The translations under genes were made by a program, and so were the position numbers. This document shows, piece after piece, positions 1,026 to 64,000 of a stretch of 64,000 nucleotides of DNA (the first letter of the stretch is position 1; every line of letters starts with the position of its first letter). The notes beneath the pieces are model-generated. The model did no database searches and was not told where the DNA came from. It was given only the letters and a program-made list of their open reading frames with translations. Origin of the DNA: Dehalococcoidia bacterium. Lineage in GTDB: Bacteria > Chloroflexota > Dehalococcoidia > Lucifugimonadales > JAGWBF01. The stretch covers positions 398,109 through 462,108 of the forward strand of contig CBDDDW010000028.1 of assembly GCA_965226805.1 (NCBI GenBank), in the 5' to 3' direction.

Positions 1026-2660
1026 CTATCCACCTGTTCCTGAAGGCCGAATTCGTTGGATCGCCTGAACCTCGACGGTCCCCGGGTATGTCCCCGGGTC
1101 GCCTTCCACGGTGAAGAGGCCGTTGGGGTCTATGGTACCCACGGCGGGTCCTTCTTCTGGATTATTGATCTTCCACCGGAAAGTGACGTCCGGCACCAGT
1201 ACTCCGCTCTTATCCCGTGCAACAGCCCGGAACTGGACTTTGTTTCCTCGGGCCACGGTAGCAGCCTCGGGCGTGATCTGCACGTTGTTGAGAACATCTC
1301 GTATGACCAGGGTAGCGCTGACCTCCGTTGTGAGAGGGCCGCCCTCGGTATCCAGTGTAACCCTTGCGCGGATAGCTCCTTCGTAAACCCCAGGGAAATC
1401 ATGGGCAGTGACGTTTACAAACTGTGACACCTCACCGACTTCCGGGGGGCTCAACGACCAATCAACATTGGCGCCTGACAGGAACCGCACGTCGCCACCC
1501 AGAGTCACTATCGAGACACGGGTTGACTCTCCCGGCGACAGCACTATGCGCTCCGGGAAGATAGCGACTTTAAAGGCTTCCGCTGACTCCTGCGTAGTCG
1601 GCAAGGAAACGTCTATGATGGCGACTGTGGCGATGGCGGTCACGGTCTCATCGGCGCCCTGAATGCTTATCGTGACTCGTACGACGTCGGGGTATATGCC
1701 GGCCTCGTTACTTGCCTGGAACCGGCCGTTATTGGTGATTACCCCGGCCCTGTCATCCAGAACCTCCCAACGATGCTCAGTCGCTGTGATCTGATTACCC
1801 TTCTTGTCCAGAAGCAATGCGCTAAACCTGATGTCGTCACCGGGCGTGAGGCTTACGACTCTGGGGAGTACCGATGCAGATACTCTGTTGGCCGCGTCTG
1901 CCGGATCTGTCACTAGAACGTCCATGGTGGCGCTGATTGGTTCATCCCGTCCATCTTCTTCAGGGATCAGCGTGACACGGATCGCTTTGGGGAATGTACC
2001 TATGTTTGAGGACGCCACTAACCGGTTGTCCCGGGAGATGGACCCTGCCAGAGGCTCTATCATCTCCCATTTAAATTTCACGTCAGGGATGGCGAGCCCG
2101 TTAGCATCCAACGCCATGGCCGTAAGCCGGAAGGTCCCTTCCGGTTCAACCTCGGCCGCTTCCGGAAAGAGGACTATGCGCGCGGGTACTAGCTCACGGA
2201 TGAACTCATCCACGGTAACACTCGCGGCCGCCTGGACCAACCCTGCTGCCATACCCGCCGGCGCCCGGGCTGTGACAACGAGTGAGTCACCGAAGGTGCC
2301 TTTGGTAAAACCAGCGCGGAAAACTCCCCTCGGTGTAATAGTCCCAACTTCGGGATCGATCGCCTGCCACTGAATTACGGCTCCTTCGATTTCCCTTCCC
2401 AGCTGGTCGAAAGCTAATCCGGAGAGCGTGATTGTCTCCCCCGGTGAAATGGTGATGTGGGCCGGGACGGGTCGGACCTGTGTCAGCCGTGGCGTGCCCC
2501 TATCCACGATTGTGATGTCCGCCGTGGCAGAAGCGGTCAGCACCTCTTCAGATTCATCGAAGGCGCGCTCGATCTGTGGTGTGGAGCGGCAGCCGGACCA
2601 TGCTATGCTAAAAAGGCCCAGCAGGACGAGAAACAGGTATCTTGATATCACTTTATGCAT
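1026..2660 (-). CDS. secreted lipoprotein built of tandem bacterial Ig-like (Big_2-type) domains
   Basis: Signal peptide with a lipobox (..SIAWSGC). The recurring domain signature appears at least four times: WQAIDPEVGTITPRGVFRAG, WEMIEPLAGSISRDNRLVAS, WEVLDDRAGVITNNGRFQAS, WKINNPEEGPAVGTIDPNGLFTV. Confidence 0.7.
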   Translation of the reverse strand: MHKVISRYLFLVLLGLFSIAWSGCRSTPQIERAFDESEEVLTASATADITIVDRGTPRLTQVRPVPAHITISPGETITLSGLAFDQLGREIEGAVIQWQAIDPEVGTITPRGVFRAGFTKGTFGDSLVVTARAPAGMAAGLVQAAASVTVDEFIRELVPARIVLFPEAAEVEPEGTFRLTAMALDANGLAIPDVKFKWEMIEPLAGSISRDNRLVASSNIGTFPKAIRVTLIPEEDGRDEPISATMDVLVTDPADAANRVSASVLPRVVSLTPGDDIRFSALLLDKKGNQITATEHRWEVLDDRAGVITNNGRFQASNEAGIYPDVVRVTISIQGADETVTAIATVAIIDVSLPTTQESAEAFKVAIFPERIVLSPGESTRVSIVTLGGDVRFLSGANVDWSLSPPEVGEVSQFVNVTAHDFPGVYEGAIRARVTLDTEGGPLTTEVSATLVIRDVLNNVQITPEAATVARGNKVQFRAVARDKSGVLVPDVTFRWKINNPEEGPAVGTIDPNGLFTVEGDPGTYPGTVEVQAIQRIRPSGTGG

Positions 2661-2848
2661 CGGTCGCCGTTGGAGGCGAAGGGGCTTTCACTAGGACTAC
2701 ATCGACTAAATTGGAACATCCGTTACATTCAGTCTATTCCTAAAGGAATTTAATGACAAGACCGCGACCCGGGGTAATTGAAGCGGATCCTCTACGATAC
2801 GGCGCCTCAGGGGCACGCCCAGCCCCTCCTCAGGCGTACGGCTCTAGG

Positions 2849-4591
2849 CTACCGGAGTACACGGAAGACAGCCACGTCGCCCCACTGTTCCTGCATCGCG
2901 TACCACTCTGTGTGGGCTTGAAACCCGTCCCAAAACAAATGTGAGTTCTCTAGCGGGTAATCGGGCACGCGCTTGACAAGGACGTACGTGGCGCCCAGGT
3001 CTACCAATAAGCTGTGTGATGTTTCTATATCCACGTTTGCGGTCCATCCCATGATCCGGAGCTGCCGAACCTGATTCACATTGGGAGCTCCCTCATCGTG
3101 CCACCCGTCCACCAAGAGGTGGCCCGTGGTGTACGGGACGAGGAACGTGTGCCAATTCCAGAGACCCACTGCGTAAACGCGGCCTTGTGTCTCGTCATCT
3201 GGTGGTGGCTCCCGGGCCAGCCAGCTCATAGCTTGCGCGACTGACTCATCTACCTGGTACGGGCTCATGTGGTCTCTTGCTTTCAAAGCGTCGATAATCG
3301 GAAATATCAGGATAACCATGGTGACCACGATCATCACACCCCACCGCGCGCGGTCGGCTCGATGTGACCAGGAGCGAGAGCCGAAGGCCAACGATGGCCA
3401 AATGTCTCTTAAAAAGCCAAACGTGCGTTCCACAAGGGCGGCGCCGAGCAATGTCATGAAAGGCACCATGAACAGATGGAAACGGGCGACATCGAGGGCG
3501 CTAAACGGGTAGACGCGGATAAGTGGGTTCAAATCGGAGCCCATACTGAACCACGCCAACACCAGCAGCGTGATGGCAACTCCGGCGAGGCGCTTACGCT
3601 CTATCAGCGTGTACACCGTCCCCCCAGTCGCGAGCACCAGTATTGTGATGCCCAGGTAAGATGGGTATACGAATCCACCGATAAGCGAGGAGTCGACGAT
3701 GTTGGAGCTGTATGCGTTCAAGGTCGGGAGCCAGAGACCGGGAATCTCTCGTCGGAAAGCTACATCGAGGATGTGGATGGTGAAGGGAATCCCCCAGGGG
3801 GCGACGATCAGCGCCGTAACCGCCGTGAATAACGCTGAATGAGTGAGTACCTGTCTCCTGGAATATACGGCTGAGAGTGCGTGGTAGAGGAACCACCCAG
3901 CTATTCCCAGACCCAGCGAAATCCCGGTCATGTGGTGGGTCAGGATGCTGGCCGCCATGCATGCTCCTCCCCATGCGGATAGCCCACGGTTGCCTGTTCT
4001 AAGGGATCGTTCAAGCAGCATGAATCCCACAAGCCCGATGGGAAGGGCCAACATGGAAGTAAACCAGCCCCACAGAAAGATCGAGCTTAGAACCGGGTAG
4101 GCTAGAGTGGTCAGGACTCCGGCCAGGGCGGCGGTCCACCGACGCAGGCCCAGCTCAACCGCGAGCCAGTAGGTCGCCGTAGCCAGTCCCCCGTACGCCA
4201 TGACCAGCAGGGCGACGGAGACCCCTATTAGGTCGATCCGTGTCACGAAGCTGATGACTCCAACTAGGCCGTAACCCAGGGGAGGATATGCCTGAAGGTA
4301 CGGGAAGCCACCGTACCAATAGGGGTCCTGGAGCGGGTTCGCCAGGTCGCCAGAGAGGGCAAGCTTGGTGACCCAGCTCAGGTGCAGGAAGGTTGCAGTA
4401 TCCACCCCGGATGGATAGTCTTGGCCAAAGGTTGGCCATATGATAATGATGCCCAGAACGCAAAACGCGAAGAATATCCCGAGTTGCGGGTAAGCCTTTA
4501 CCAGGCTCTGAGTCAACAAGAGTCTGCCGATCGGGTGGTGGGATGTCCGGTGCAGCACCGCGCTGCTTCTGGCGGCGAGCTTGTCCAGCAT
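2849..4591 (-). CDS. polytopic membrane protein with a C-terminal soluble domain (GT-C-fold / PTPS-related membrane glycosyltransferase-like)
   Basis: Many hydrophobic segments. The motif DPYWYGGFPYLQAYPPLGY resembles PTPS-related/GT-C membrane proteins. I moved the start to MLDKLAARSS (4591), because the track start at 4711 overlaps the upstream gene by 112 nt. Confidence 0.5.
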   Translation of the reverse strand: MLDKLAARSSAVLHRTSHHPIGRLLLTQSLVKAYPQLGIFFAFCVLGIIIIWPTFGQDYPSGVDTATFLHLSWVTKLALSGDLANPLQDPYWYGGFPYLQAYPPLGYGLVGVISFVTRIDLIGVSVALLVMAYGGLATATYWLAVELGLRRWTAALAGVLTTLAYPVLSSIFLWGWFTSMLALPIGLVGFMLLERSLRTGNRGLSAWGGACMAASILTHHMTGISLGLGIAGWFLYHALSAVYSRRQVLTHSALFTAVTALIVAPWGIPFTIHILDVAFRREIPGLWLPTLNAYSSNIVDSSLIGGFVYPSYLGITILVLATGGTVYTLIERKRLAGVAITLLVLAWFSMGSDLNPLIRVYPFSALDVARFHLFMVPFMTLLGAALVERTFGFLRDIWPSLAFGSRSWSHRADRARWGVMIVVTMVILIFPIIDALKARDHMSPYQVDESVAQAMSWLAREPPPDDETQGRVYAVGLWNWHTFLVPYTTGHLLVDGWHDEGAPNVNQVRQLRIMGWTANVDIETSHSLLVDLGATYVLVKRVPDYPLENSHLFWDGFQAHTEWYAMQEQWGDVAVFRVLR

Positions 4592-59827: not shown

Positions 59828-61021
59828 GTGATTGAAGGTGCGCTAGAGGGAGTGCGGGTCCTCGACCTGAGTCACGATATTGCGGGCTCCTTCTGCGCCA
59901 GGCTGTTGGGGGACTATGGCGCCGACGTGGTTAAGCTGGAGCCCCATGCGGGCGCCGCTCTGAGGCGCATGGGTCCTTTCTACAAAGACGACCCTCATCC
60001 AGAGAAGAGCCTCCTATTCTTCGTCCTCAACCTGAACAAAATGGGCGCCACCCTGGACATCGGGAGCCCGACCGGGAGAAAGATTTTCAAGGAACTGGTC
60101 CAGGACGCCGACGTCGTCGTGGAGACCTTCAAGCCGGGCTACCTGAGCGGCCTGGGGCTGGATGACGGAGCTCTTGAGGAGATAAATCCTCGCCTGGTGA
60201 TGACGTCCATCACCCCCTTCGGCCAAGAGGGCCCCTACAGCCGGTACGAGGGAGAGGAGATCGTCAGCTACGCCATGGGCGCCGTCATGGGCATCAGCGG
60301 CACCCAGGACCGGGAGCCCCTGAAGCACGGCGGATTCCAGGCCCAATACGAGGCCGGCCTGAACGGCGCGGCCGCGACATCGATCGCCATGTTTCACGCG
60401 GACATGACCGATGAAGGCCAACACCTGGATATATCGACGGTTGAATGCGTCAGCTCAACTATGATCGCCAGCCAGAGCTTGTACGCCTTTACCGGCGGAA
60501 TACAGACCCGCCGAGTACCGGAAGGCGCCATGTTCGGGAACCCCATGCCTTGCAGGGACGGATGGGTGATAGGCCAGACGGGCGGCTCGGCAAGCTGGAC
60601 GGACATGGCGGCCTTTTACCAGCGGCCTGAGCTCCTTCATCCAGATATTGTTGCCGGCGCCCAGCGGGCCGAGTACGGGGAAGAGGTCGACGCCATTCTG
60701 CTTGACGCCATAAAAGACAGAGGCAAGTGGGAGCTGTTCGAGAGCGCGTCCGAAATGCGGCTGATTCTCGGCCTGGTACAGACCCCCGAAGACCTGGCGA
60801 ACTGCCCTCAGCTGAAGGCCAGGGAGTTCTATCGAGAGATAGAGCACCCCGTCATGGGCAGGCTCTCGGTTCCGGCGGTGCTTTTCAACTATAGCCTTAC
60901 CCCATATCAGTTGAGGCGGCCCGCCCCTCTCCTTGGCCAGCACAACGTCGAGGTCTACTGCGACCGCCTGGGCTACACCAGAAAAGAGCTGGTACGCATG
61001 AGTCAGCTGGAGATTATATAA
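59828..61021 (+). CDS. family III CoA-transferase (CaiB/BaiF-like)
   Basis: ..LEGVRVLDLSHDIAGSFCARLLGDYGADVVKLEP.. Confidence 0.85.
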   Translation: MIEGALEGVRVLDLSHDIAGSFCARLLGDYGADVVKLEPHAGAALRRMGPFYKDDPHPEKSLLFFVLNLNKMGATLDIGSPTGRKIFKELVQDADVVVETFKPGYLSGLGLDDGALEEINPRLVMTSITPFGQEGPYSRYEGEEIVSYAMGAVMGISGTQDREPLKHGGFQAQYEAGLNGAAATSIAMFHADMTDEGQHLDISTVECVSSTMIASQSLYAFTGGIQTRRVPEGAMFGNPMPCRDGWVIGQTGGSASWTDMAAFYQRPELLHPDIVAGAQRAEYGEEVDAILLDAIKDRGKWELFESASEMRLILGLVQTPEDLANCPQLKAREFYREIEHPVMGRLSVPAVLFNYSLTPYQLRRPAPLLGQHNVEVYCDRLGYTRKELVRMSQLEII

Positions 61022-61101: not shown

Positions 61102-62457
61102 ATGGCAAAGTTGCCACTAGAAGGTATCCGGGTCCTAGACTCCACATATGTCATCGGACTACCCTACGCGGGCGCCCTCCTGGCCGACATGGGGGCCGAG
61201 GTCATCAAGATCGAGGGGCCGGGACGGCCTGACCCCACTCGCACGGGAGGCTTCCATGGCTCCTTCCCCGAAAACGAGGTGAGGGACGACTGGTGGAACC
61301 GGGCGTCGATCTACAACCTGTTGAACAGAGGCAAAAGATCACTAACCCTGGATTTCACAGACTCCAGGGCCCGGGACGTGTTTCGTGAGCTAGTAGGCAT
61401 CAGCGACGTGGTACTGGAAAACTTCACCCAGAGGGTTATGGCGGGTTGGGGGCTCGACTACCCGAGCCTCAAGAAGACCCGGCCCGACATCATAATGTTG
61501 TCCAATACGGGATACGGGCACGGGGATGGACCATATTCCGATTATCCCGCCCAGGGAACCGCCCTGGAGGGGACCCATGGCCTCTGCTGGATAACCGGCT
61601 ACCCGGACGGCCCACCGTCCAGTGCGGGAGCGTCCTACGTGGACTTCGTCGCTACCTGGACGTGTCTCTTCGCCGTTGGCGCCGCCCTCCGATACCGCAA
61701 CCGCACCGGTAGGGGCCAATGGATAGACCTGGCGATGTATCAGGCCGGGACCATGTTCACCTCCGAGTACCTGATGGACTACCAGGTTAACGGGCGCTTG
61801 GGAAAGAGAATCGGCAACCGCCACCCCTACCGCGCTCCCCAGGGGTGCTATAGAGCCGCCGGGGCCGATCAATGGGCAGTCCTTTCGGTGGGCGGCGATG
61901 AGCAGTGGCGGGCCCTGTGCCGGCTCATGGGCAAGCCCGGCCTGGCTCAGGACCCAAGGTTCGACAATCTCCCAGGCCGGTTAACGAACCACGACCAGCT
62001 GGACATCATCATCAATCGGTGGACCGAGAAGCATGACAAATACAGCTTAATGGAGATGCTCCAGTCGGAAGGCATACCCGCCGGCCCAGTGCTCAGCGGG
62101 AAGGACACCCACGCGGACCCCCATCTTCGAGCCAGGGGATTCCTGGAGAAGGTCACGTATCCCCGGGAAAGGGGCATCGGGACCAGGCCGTTAATCGGGC
62201 GGCCCTACGGATTCTCCCGGACCCCTCTCGGGATACAGGGCCCCGCGCCGGCCCTGGGGGAGCACAACCGCGCCGTGCTCGTTGAGCTGCTAGGGATGAC
62301 CGCGGGGGAGTACCAGGCACTGGAACGGGATGGCGTGATGGCTGCAGCGCCCGCCGCCGGCGAGCCGGTGATTCCGAGGCCCATCCCCGAACAGGTAGAG
62401 AAACGCCTCCTGGCCGGCTGGGACCCCGACTACAAGAAGCGGCTGGGGATTTCTTGA
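61102..62457 (+). CDS. family III CoA-transferase (CaiB/BaiF-like), second paralog
   Basis: ..LEGIRVLDSTYVIGLPYAGALLADMGAEVIKIEGP.. Confidence 0.85.
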   Translation: MAKLPLEGIRVLDSTYVIGLPYAGALLADMGAEVIKIEGPGRPDPTRTGGFHGSFPENEVRDDWWNRASIYNLLNRGKRSLTLDFTDSRARDVFRELVGISDVVLENFTQRVMAGWGLDYPSLKKTRPDIIMLSNTGYGHGDGPYSDYPAQGTALEGTHGLCWITGYPDGPPSSAGASYVDFVATWTCLFAVGAALRYRNRTGRGQWIDLAMYQAGTMFTSEYLMDYQVNGRLGKRIGNRHPYRAPQGCYRAAGADQWAVLSVGGDEQWRALCRLMGKPGLAQDPRFDNLPGRLTNHDQLDIIINRWTEKHDKYSLMEMLQSEGIPAGPVLSGKDTHADPHLRARGFLEKVTYPRERGIGTRPLIGRPYGFSRTPLGIQGPAPALGEHNRAVLVELLGMTAGEYQALERDGVMAAAPAAGEPVIPRPIPEQVEKRLLAGWDPDYKKRLGIS

Positions 62458-62641: not shown

Positions 62642-62716
62642 GGGCCCGTAGCTCAGCGGCAGAGCAGCCGGCTCATAACCGGCGGGTCCCAGGTTCGATT
62701 CCTGGCGGGCCCACCA
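62642..62716 (+). tRNA. tRNA with a CAU anticodon (elongator Met by default; an Ile2/lysidine type cannot be excluded), CCA encoded
   Basis: A perfect hand-folded cloverleaf: GGGCCCG/CGGGCCC acceptor, GCCGG-CTCATAA-CCGGC anticodon arm, TTCGATT T-loop. It lacks initiator features (no C1-A72 mismatch, no GGG/CCC in the anticodon stem). Confidence 0.9.
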
Positions 62717-64000
62717 TGACGTACCGAATTCATAACTCGCCCGTTCAGGGCGATCTCTGCGGCGTCCGCTCCCCCCATTGGGCTATCGTCCGGCGTGGGT
62801 ATAGAGTAGACGATGGCGGCCCTGCCGGGCTTGACCACGACCTCCTTGACGAAGGAGCCGACGAAGGCTTTGGTTTCGGTCAGCTCGCTGGTCTTGAGGA
62901 ACTCGCTCATCTCGGCGGCGAAGGTGGCGATGGTGTCGGCGCTGTCGAGGAACTGCCGCCTCTCTTTCAGCAGCGCCCTCGCCTCCTCTGCGGCGATCTC
63001 CAGCTTCTCCTTGCGCTCCCGGTGCTCCTTGATGCGGTCCGAGGCGTCGGCCATCTCGGTGTCGGTCGTCTCGATGTGGTTCCAGATGCGGGCCAGCCGC
63101 TTCTTCACGTCCTCAAGCTCCTCCTCGATGGTCTGAAGCCTCTCCCGCTGGTCGCGGGCCACCCCGTCCATCTCCTCGTCCAGCAGCTTCACCAGGTCTC
63201 GGATGTTGGACTCGGTGAGAACGTTCTCCCTGATCTCGTTGACGATGAGCTTCTCGAAGCTCTTGGCGTTGAGCCTGGGGGTCTTGCAGGTTCCCTTGCC
63301 CCGCTTGAGCAGGGAGTGGCAGATGTAGTAGGTGTACTTGCCGCTCTTGGCCTCGGCTGCGGTCATGGCCTTGCCGCAGGTCTCGCACTTGGCGATGCCG
63401 CTGAGCAGGTAGGGGCTGGAGGCGCGGCGGGGGTTCACCTTCTTGGGGGCGCGGGAGCCGAGCAACCTCCTGGCCTTCTGGAAGTCCCGCTTGGAGACGA
63501 TGGCGGGGTGTGCGTCCTCGACGCGCACGGGGGGAGCGCCGTCCTTGGCGTTGGCTCCCCAGACCACGGTGCCGGTGTAGGCTTCGTGGGAGAGCATGGT
63601 GTGGATGGTGGTCTTAAGCCACTTCTTGCCGTTGGTGGTTGGGATGCCCTCGGCGTTGAGGGTCTTGGTCACGTCGAGGATGCTCTTGCCCTGTAGCACC
63701 ATGTCGAAGACCCGTCTGACCACGGCGTCGGCGGGCGGGTTCAGCTCAAGCTTGGGGCGTTTCGCGGCCCCATCCTGGACGTGGACCCGCTTGTAGCCAT
63801 AGGGGGCGTAGGTGGTCATCCAGAACCCTCTCGACGCGGCCTCCCGCATCCCCCGGACAACCTCCTGGGCGAGATTTTCCGAGTAAAATTCGTCCACGCT
63901 CTCGATGATGGCCTCAAGGAGCTTGCCCGTGGGGGTGTCGTCGGCCTGCTCGGTGATGGAGACCACTCGGACGCCTCTGCGTCTCAGCATGGACTTGAAG
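62653..64000 (-). CDS. large serine recombinase (integrase); the N-terminal catalytic domain continues beyond the window end
   Basis: End of the resolvase domain (..GVRVVSITEQADDTPTGKLLEAIIESVDEFYSENL..), a recombinase domain, a zinc ribbon (CETCGKAMT..YYICHS..GKGTC) and a long coiled coil. The last 21 codons are antisense to tRNA-Met. Confidence 0.9.
   Translation of the reverse strand, partial: FKSMLRRRGVRVVSITEQADDTPTGKLLEAIIESVDEFYSENLAQEVVRGMREAASRGFWMTTYAPYGYKRVHVQDGAAKRPKLELNPPADAVVRRVFDMVLQGKSILDVTKTLNAEGIPTTNGKKWLKTTIHTMLSHEAYTGTVVWGANAKDGAPPVRVEDAHPAIVSKRDFQKARRLLGSRAPKKVNPRRASSPYLLSGIAKCETCGKAMTAAEAKSGKYTYYICHSLLKRGKGTCKTPRLNAKSFEKLIVNEIRENVLTESNIRDLVKLLDEEMDGVARDQRERLQTIEEELEDVKKRLARIWNHIETTDTEMADASDRIKEHRERKEKLEIAAEEARALLKERRQFLDSADTIATFAAEMSEFLKTSELTETKAFVGSFVKEVVVKPGRAAIVYSIPTPDDSPMGGADAAEIALNGRVMNSVRHGGPARNRTWDPPVMSRLLCR

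Follow-up and report, generated by a model that had tools for sequence, protein, structure and literature searches.

The closest described counterparts of the locus treated here are the ssrA islands of Dehalococcoides, in which a 540-aa serine integrase, DsiB, adjoins attL and which are described, in the text available to us, with a 20-bp repeat, insertion at the T loop and a six-gene module (McMurdie et al. 2011, PMC3146451). The same text reports that dsiB overlaps attL in every case and stops beyond the island, and it carries the speculation that only the circle, or a position behind another island, gives a complete gene (PMC3146451). Among integrative mobilizable elements (IMEs), those targeting tRNA genes all use tyrosine recombinases in the rows listed in a review table, and the site-specific serine IMEs disrupt dispensable genes according to the accessible part of that review (PMC5704250). 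Here we analyse a 64,000-nt stretch (the window) of a Dehalococcoidia metagenome-assembled genome (MAG), at the right end of which the gene for a large serine recombinase (LSR) runs antisense into an intact tRNA-Met gene. Very probably an integrative genomic island has inserted here, at the extreme 3′ end of tRNA-Met, and this feature is attL, its LSR-bearing edge. To our knowledge, serine integrases are generally said to avoid tRNA genes.

The window is positions 398109-462108 of contig CBDDDW010000028.1 (C28) of the source genome (G000), and C28 ends 3.8 kb to the right of it. We use L001 for the rightward extension of the window locus and higher L numbers, as cited, for loci from other genomes. 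The features of the locus, in window coordinates, are as follows.

62642-62716, plus strand: intact tRNA-Met(CAU) gene called by ARAGORN (anticodon CAT); the integration target, supplying the B arm and core of attL
62653-64000, minus strand: open reading frame (ORF), the window part of the LSR gene, residues 107-554 of 554
62653-62715, minus strand: surrogate C-terminal tail read from the sequence, 20 codons (GGPARNRTWDPPVMSRLLCR) and a stop, in host DNA outside the element
62709-62716, no strand assigned: shared core GCCCACCA, comprising the acceptor-stem end, discriminator A and CCA; placed by junction alignment, the L092 repeat and symmetry
62711-62712: predicted crossover dinucleotide CC, placed at the symmetry centre
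62712-62736, plus strand: P′ half-site of attP, 25 bp, with the terminal inverted repeat ACGTACCGAATTCATAAC; recognized as a repeated end sequence
62687-62711, plus strand: B half-site, formed by the tRNA T-arm and 3′ acceptor strand, with the T-loop GAAC (other strand) at half-site positions 16-19

The LSR gene starts ~320 nt past the right edge of the window (window-equivalent 64317); the whole gene is L001 2762-4426, encoding 554 aa that end in ...HGGPARNRTWDPPVMSRLLCR. Read antisense, tRNA positions 12-75 supply 20 full LSR codons (62656-62715), one base of a His codon and the stop (62653-62655). The P′ half-site falls within the final codons that the element itself supplies (...VMNSVRHGG), and its end sequence is found at three places in the source genome and in many relatives. 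An initial annotation, made from the window sequence, had placed a tRNA(CAU) gene at 62642-62716 (+) and had read a minus-strand ORF containing the end of a resolvase domain, a recombinase domain and a Zn ribbon up to a stop at 62653, its tail antisense to tRNA positions 12-75. ARAGORN agrees on the tRNA, the stop and tail are there in the sequence, and Pfam matches all three domains (Resolvase by its C-terminal end only, Recombinase and Zn_ribbon_recom). We take this tRNA to be a non-initiator, since its anticodon stem does not contain three consecutive G-C pairs; at relatives' empty sites the orthologous tRNA matches it with 100% identity over 73-74 nt.

A search for related loci yielded 66, all in Dehalococcoidia/Chloroflexota MAGs, of which 58 are usable in that the LSR C-terminus and at least 95 nt downstream are present. 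An antisense tRNA gene starts exactly at the element boundary in 38 of the 58, and 12 isoacceptors are represented among the targets (Met, Ile, two Ala, two Glu, Lys, two Val and three Arg). The LSR family inserts at tRNA 3′ ends and the tRNA is kept intact, with only ~8-9 nt of the tRNA end common to element and target. In each of the 54 loci with a placeable boundary, the LSR ORF leaves the element and meets its stop codon 13-832 nt past the boundary; in 25 of them the stop is inside the tRNA. Since this holds family-wide, the read-through is not chance; nor is the overlap of LSR and tRNA, because the layout recurs at three further tRNAs of the source genome as well as at the 38 related loci. 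LSR homologs (E ≤ 1e-20) occur in 157 of 301 sampled genomes of the class, a tally that includes the unpublished G284, and one relative genome contributes up to five related loci. Distant homologs (43-48% identity) that were fetched likewise lie antisense to tRNAs (7/7). As a separate observation, two LSR genes (~52% identical) converge on a single core in L011, L012, L021, L026, L034 and L048, at ~11.6 kb in each locus, an arrangement that recurs in several genomes; in L011, L012, L026 and L034 the first convergent LSR ORF extends 355 nt antisense into the second.

The source genome holds at least eight LSR copies or fragments. Four paralogs end antisense inside tRNAs, namely Met-CAT (the window), Val-GAC (contig C8), Val-TAC (C12) and Lys-TTT (C20), and all four junctions read ...GCCCACCA up to the boundary followed by the last codons of the LSR. 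The copies at Met and Val-GAC are 95-97% identical, and those 8 nt are the only tRNA sequence they have in common. Seven of the 48 tRNA genes of the source genome end in GCCCACCA; four of these seven are occupied vs none of the other 41 (Fisher p 1.8e-4). A fifth tRNA with this ending, Val-TAC on C30, is directly followed by a far-end remnant.

Upstream of tRNA-Met lie two adjacent paralogs (59828-61021 and 61102-62457, both plus strand) whose translations look like family III (CaiB/BaiF-type) CoA-transferases, and this gene pair served as the synteny anchor for locating orthologous tRNA-Met sites. Among the 10 syntenic relatives whose sequence reaches far enough downstream, the site is occupied in three (L088, L090 and L092) and empty in seven (L089, L091 and L093-L097); two further syntenic loci, where sequence ends within ~0.5 kb of the tRNA, were left out of the count. 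Every occupied tRNA-Met gene reads ACCA, and several of the empty ones are without the full CCA. Between genomes, the element region is 80-94% identical vs 71-74% for the adjacent host gene. A complete element is seen in L092, where tRNA-Met is followed by a 16.8-kb element 1 with ends TACTTGACGGTAGACAGAAC and GTTCTGCCTACAGTCAACTC, then CGGCCCACCA, then a second element of the window type. In this tandem array element 1 has inverted-repeat ends and is flanked by the 9-nt repeat GGCCCACCA of the tRNA end; terminal inverted repeats of the elements are ~20 nt. The reading of the locus as the edge of an integrated element, proposed in the initial annotation, is thus borne out by polymorphic occupancy, the many tRNA targets, the 16.8-kb complete relative and an element conserved above its flank, and the comparison with related genomes that it called for did turn up empty tRNA-Met sites, in 7 of 10. 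It had also expected a direct repeat of the 3′ part of tRNA-Met; the repeat found is only ~8-9 nt, at the extreme 3′ end.

Similarity of the window element to its four closest relatives (L002, L004, L010 and L056) covers a module of the LSR gene and a small ribbon-helix-helix (RHH) gene and then runs to the contig end; therefore the island reaches beyond the assembly. In most relatives only this ~1.9-kb module (L001 2817-4758) is conserved. No further tRNA was found in L001. For cargo, 19 ORFs were tested against Pfam: four from the 5 kb of the window element, 12 from L092 (11 in element 1 and one in element 2) and three from L004. The four window ORFs gave RHH, DUF5655, an aldo-keto-reductase fragment and one without a match, and L092 gave Replic_Relax, two IS transposases, ParD/PIN, SIMPL, LRR and cyclophilin proteins besides unknowns. 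Pfam matched none of the 19 ORFs to a phage structural or packaging family (PHROGs not searched). The rightward extension and cargo inventory called for in the initial annotation show an element that continues to the contig end and, in L092, a cargo that is island-like, but C28 ends before a far junction is met and only 5 kb of the window copy is available.

Within this stretch, L001 4759-5769 (window-equivalent 64650-65660) is a 1011-bp segment skipped by the similarity to the closest relatives and flanked on both sides by TGAAG; it holds the C-terminal aldo-keto-reductase fragment and the DUF5655 gene, is unique in the genome and is absent from all 66 related loci. In L004, the closest relative of the element, the cargo includes a 608-aa group II intron reverse transcriptase/maturase with HNH (1501-3327) and a 407-aa protein with four HTH_3 repeats.

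The LSR ORF never stops inside the element, and the far end of the element encodes, in the same frame, a conserved peptide of 17-19 aa and a stop. Far ends were collected by a consensus-based pattern (core, inverted repeat and downstream motif), which gave 19 distinct B-type and nine A-type ends; a looser first pattern had given 97 distinct sequences, mostly false hits, and was replaced by this stricter one. B-type ends (frame GGT GGG CC.) encode GGPx[WL]TV[DG][RS]T[IV]FE[ML]W[LM]G(x)L*, with the stop at codon 18-19 in 15 of 19, and A-type ends encode GGPxxTELRTFRWEVxI*, eight of the nine stopping at codon 17; each of the three stop codons is represented. At element-element junctions the LSR ORF stops 55-61 nt past the core, and a natural complete LSR with its native tail is seen at L092:1471-3102, ending ...GGPELTVGRTIFELWMGL. 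The ratio of nonsynonymous to synonymous variation (pN/pS), a purely descriptive figure here, is 0.58 (B) and 0.43 (A) in the LSR frame vs 1.09-1.39 in the other two frames, and beyond the inverted repeat it falls to 0.31 (B) and 0.20 (A) in the LSR frame; the A-type values are from eight of the nine sequences, one with an early stop being left out. These patterns of variation point to coding constraint on the far-end peptide, and the LSR gene appears to span attP, its last ~18 codons lying across the site.

Such an arrangement would work as follows. The attP site would be a palindrome of ~50 bp wholly inside the 3′ end of the LSR gene, and the predicted circular junction reads far end, GGCCCACCA, TGACGTACCGAATTC... 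Strand exchange at the CC just 5′ of ACCA would, on integration, leave the final ~18 codons at the opposite end of the island, and reading of the LSR would continue through the antisense tRNA to a chance stop. Either the excised circle or the far end of an upstream tandem element would complete the gene. The proposal in the initial annotation that the attachment site overlaps the recombinase coding sequence, so that integration and excision would change the C-terminus, fits both the 54/54 external stops and the conserved tail in the LSR frame.

What the tail does is a matter for conjecture. We tentatively suggest, while holding it rather doubtful, that the LSR senses its own integration state through its C-terminus, the native 17-19-aa tail (circle or tandem) vs the tRNA-antisense tail setting activity, stability or directionality; this would be an integrate/excise switch working without a separate directionality factor, with the tRNA T-loop as a universal docking motif. 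Somewhat less likely still, in our judgement, is that the far-end peptide is no functional part of the LSR, that its conservation reflects constraint on the DNA (a protein-binding site or terminator) and that the enzyme ends at ...HGG. Some of the tail does coincide with the inverted repeat, a sequence under constraint as DNA; the RT residues present in both native and tRNA-derived tails come from the GAAC motif, and the tail is not confidently modelled by AlphaFold (pLDDT <40); McMurdie et al. moreover judged the ssrA-encoded part of DsiB unlikely to be functional, in the text available (PMC3146451). A constraint at the DNA level is harder to reconcile with the region beyond the repeat, >30 bp from the centre and so outside the 25-bp half-site, where variation is mostly synonymous and in the LSR frame only, or with three different stop codons holding the same position.

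The geometry of the site offers a candidate explanation of target choice. The centre was set at the dinucleotide immediately 5′ of ACCA, about which the A-type palindrome is symmetric, with an uncertainty of one base. In the element arm, [G/T]AAC stands at half-site positions 22-25 in 51 of 54 loci; in the tRNA arm, the T-loop GAAC stands at positions 16-19 in 37 of 37, ~6 bp nearer the centre, and left arms that are not tRNAs have the element-type spacing in 11 of 17. In a model of the LI integrase, attP half-sites are 25 bp and the zinc-ribbon motif is shifted 5 bp toward the centre in attB, according to the accessible text (Rutherford et al. 2013, PMC3783163). Given the one-base uncertainty, the measured 6-bp shift is close to this attB-vs-attP geometry, by analogy. 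The zinc-ribbon domain would then read the GAAC motif, which the universal tRNA T-loop would supply ~6 bp nearer the centre, and a T-loop GAAC in the attB position would explain how one clade uses many tRNAs.

The enzyme itself is a serine recombinase by its domains. In the complete LSR, Pfam Resolvase spans residues 10-156 (profile 1-143 of 145, E 4e-33), followed in LSR order by Recombinase PF07508 (E 3.5e-22) and the zinc ribbon PF13408 (E 8e-13); Pfam finds serine-recombinase domains only, and a tyrosine recombinase (Phage_integrase) domain is absent. The catalytic domain matches the solved structures 3guv, 3g13 and 3bvp, and the motif Y-A-R-V-S-S-x-R-Q is invariant across 32 LSR homologs. 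Among solved structures the SPbeta integrase comes closest (E 5e-15), and the best NCBIfam model is CcrB (E 2e-38), at 132 bits vs a cut-off of 900 and hence not as an equivalog. On the coiled coil, there are weak SMC/Rad50 matches at residues 356-466 and long helices at 361-449 in a low-confidence AlphaFold model of the L002 homolog; this model, of the natural L002 ORF with its native tail and a 32-sequence alignment, has a mean pLDDT of 60.7 and a pTM of 0.34. A 77-aa RHH gene overlaps the LSR start, and an RHH gene lies upstream of the LSR in 35 of 42 related loci; the integration module comprises two genes, for a small RHH protein and for the 554-aa LSR. An IS607-type transposase, a small protein (<300 aa) in which an N-terminal HTH precedes the catalytic domain, was considered and rejected: the LSR has 554 aa, and the IS607 model scores 41.6 bits vs a cut-off of 110, over the catalytic domain only.

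Several points weigh against the integrated island as we read it. The attR of the window copy was not found, C28 breaking off 3.8 kb to the right of the window, within a repeat that also occurs on C30. A genome scan with far-end internal signatures gave no attR assignable to this copy, nor did tracing the element through its closest relative L004 to contigs C30, C20 and C29. The inverted A-type end (≤4 mismatches) is absent from the assembly, where only three recombinase-side ends matched. The flank of the nearest empty site (G001) maps to the middle of contig C24, without an att-like site, and bracketing occupied sites by empty-site flanks of other genera failed, downstream flanks not being conserved at the DNA level. 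No ARAGORN tRNA stands at the boundary in 20 of the 58 usable loci; among these, visual inspection shows tRNA remnants in three (L024, L042 and L058), and most others are element-element junctions or convergent second recombinases. As to mechanism, the shift is 6 bp here vs 5 bp in the LI model, the CC crossover and the role of the zinc ribbon are placed by symmetry only, the tail sequences are mutually related and pattern-chosen, and the AlphaFold model is uninformative on the tail.

The alternatives must account for the same observations. A fixed, domesticated recombinase beside tRNA-Met, whose read-through is a harmless accident of a GC-rich, stop-poor genome, is hardly conceivable: the window is indeed GC-rich with abundant long spurious ORFs, the tRNA-encoded tail varies from tRNA to tRNA and the far end of the window copy is missing, but the orthologous site is polymorphic (three occupied and seven empty), which contradicts the fixed, non-mobile arrangement that the initial annotation had named as its refuting case. 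At least 12 tRNA targets, tandem arrays with repeats and an element more conserved than its flank are likewise at odds with a fixed recombinase, and the 54/54 external stops with an accidental read-through. Only slightly less remote is the boundary of a prophage, from a temperate phage with a serine integrase. Serine integrases are typical of temperate phages, and the closest solved relative of the LSR is the integrase of the SPbeta prophage; against this, Pfam found no phage family among the 19 ORFs (PHROGs not searched), and what the tested ORFs gave was Replic_Relax, IS transposases, ParD/PIN, a multi-HTH regulator and a group II intron reverse transcriptase.

An IS-like serine transposon deserves more weight, improbable as we consider it. 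The mobile unit would be a multi-copy RHH-LSR unit of ~1.9 kb with loose specificity, the DNA beyond it being chromosome or other elements. Conservation of the ~1.9-kb module alone in most relatives would suit such a unit, as would the eight or more copies and fragments in the source genome, the up to five loci in one relative and the truncated copies with a shared leader at different tRNAs. It fits poorly with the cargo that L002, L004, L010 and L056 share past the module up to the contig end, with a sole fully bracketed element of 16.8 kb with cargo, and with insertion confined to tRNA ends sharing 8-9 nt with the element. The integrative island at tRNA-Met is the reading that we retain.

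The truncated copies form a group of their own. LSR copies without the first ~142-148 codons, the whole catalytic domain, are C8:10139-11329, C28:21737-22921, L012, L046, L050, L060 and L048; in seven of eight such copies examined, a common leader of ~60 nt stands in place of the catalytic domain, and the first in-frame ATG after the leader is M149. They sit at Val-GAC, Val-TAC and Arg-CCG tRNAs, and could represent non-autonomous derivatives mobilized in trans or, alternatively, forms that only bind DNA. Many att-like remnants are also scattered in the genome (C17:16234-16330, C30:311557-311600 and C30 ~316900), with another in L002 at ~11690; palindromes of two far ends facing across AGGCCCACCA occur among the remnants, and T-arm-like motifs lie just upstream of several far-end cores. 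The tRNA cluster Val-Leu-Arg-Val is present twice (C12:7677-8187 and C30:311059-311556). Contig C12 (11.5 kb) may stem from another strain, or from a related organism, that was binned into the MAG, for which contamination is estimated at 3.1%. We rejected C12 and C30 as a filled/empty pair: the clusters are only 76% identical, and with the far-end remnant that it holds the C30 site is not cleanly empty.

Serine integrases are prized tools for genome engineering, and the clade described here, with homologs in about half of the sampled Dehalococcoidia genomes, targets the conserved 3′ tips of many tRNAs and leaves the tRNAs undamaged. A T-loop in place of the attB zinc-ribbon motif would be a testable rule of target choice. 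The design of a gene spanning attP makes the 2011 speculation on DsiB testable, native and surrogate tails both being readable from sequence; it also explains the automatic annotations of recombinase genes overlapping tRNAs in these genomes, and the overlap of LSR and tRNA is a marker for mapping islands in Dehalococcoidia MAGs.

DsiB resembles the LSR in class, in its ~540 aa, in lying on the reverse strand beside attL, in insertion at the 3′ end of a tRNA-like gene and in tandem stacking, and its gene overlaps attL with the stop outside the island, as at the window locus and in the 54/54 related loci. In the available text of the DsiB paper, the repeat is 20 bp with T-loop insertion and the module has six genes (DsiB, the small serine recombinase DsiA, RecF-like, ParB, Mom and a large protein), with a tRNA-Gly-like locus embedded in it; here the repeat is 8-9 nt at the acceptor/CCA tip and the module is the RHH-LSR pair (PMC3146451). 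The targets here are ordinary tRNAs (at least 12 isoacceptors) rather than ssrA, and there is no tmRNA in the window or the 66 related loci. Neither DsiA nor the RecF, ParB and Mom families were matched among the four ORFs tested in the available 5 kb of the window element. The conserved far-end tail is demonstrated for the LSR clade, whereas for DsiB it was only speculated, as far as the accessible text goes (PMC3146451). Three small closed genomes of the class (1.4-1.5 Mb) were examined, ARAGORN finding tmRNA in loci from two: paralogs 40-47% identical to the LSR sit at tRNAs (Val, Ala and Asn), and two of the paralogs of 25-28% identity adjoin tmRNA. The tRNA-adjacent paralogs being the closer ones, the LSR therefore belongs to a tRNA-targeting sister clade of DsiB. 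Two aspects that the initial annotation had called unusual, a serine recombinase at a tRNA gene and an attachment site within its coding sequence, are both present, but both have precedent in DsiB at ssrA in the accessible part of that paper (PMC3146451). No description of a tRNA-targeting LSR clade was found in the full-text literature searched, supplements excluded.

The insertion sites of phage-type serine integrases are, as far as is known, inside protein genes or in the gaps separating them, and their attP sits apart from the integrase coding sequence. Those of Listeria A118/LI, SPbeta (SprA), phiC31, Bxb1 and TP901-1 share with the LSR the domain order Resolvase-Recombinase-Zn ribbon, perhaps also the coiled coil, and probably, per the part of the LI study available, a pseudo-palindromic attP whose half-sites measure 25 bp, along with a distal motif that in attB lies nearer the centre (PMC3783163). 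At the level of literature listings we located no natural attP inside a serine-integrase gene; supplements of the DsiB paper, e.g. S6, may bear on this. SCCmec, with CcrA/CcrB, is similar in that CcrB is the best NCBIfam model and in that the island stands at the 3′ end of an essential gene left undamaged, as the accessible text has it (PMC3146451). Two recombinases are found there vs a single LSR with an RHH partner here, where the target is a tRNA. The SCCmec target is orfX/rlmH.

Islands that tyrosine integrases place at tRNAs are alike in an integrase gene beside an intact tRNA, a 3′ end restored by the element and tandem accretion, in the available portion of the review (PMC5704250). The enzyme superfamily is a different one, and the segment shared by the LSR element is much shorter. 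Genes remodelled by their own att site are known from SSV1-type integrases, from the integration-dependent immunity of mycobacteriophages and from the tnpX promoter that Tn4451 forms on its circle. In these, as would be the case here, integration state alters a product or its expression through an att site in or beside the gene; they involve tyrosine integrases, a repressor and a promoter, whereas here it would be the ~18 C-terminal codons of a serine integrase that are exchanged. Compared with these systems, as far as the accessible literature describes them, the present locus and its relatives add a family-wide specificity for tRNA tips, a native tail apparently encoded across attP and a probable fit of the T-loop to attB geometry.

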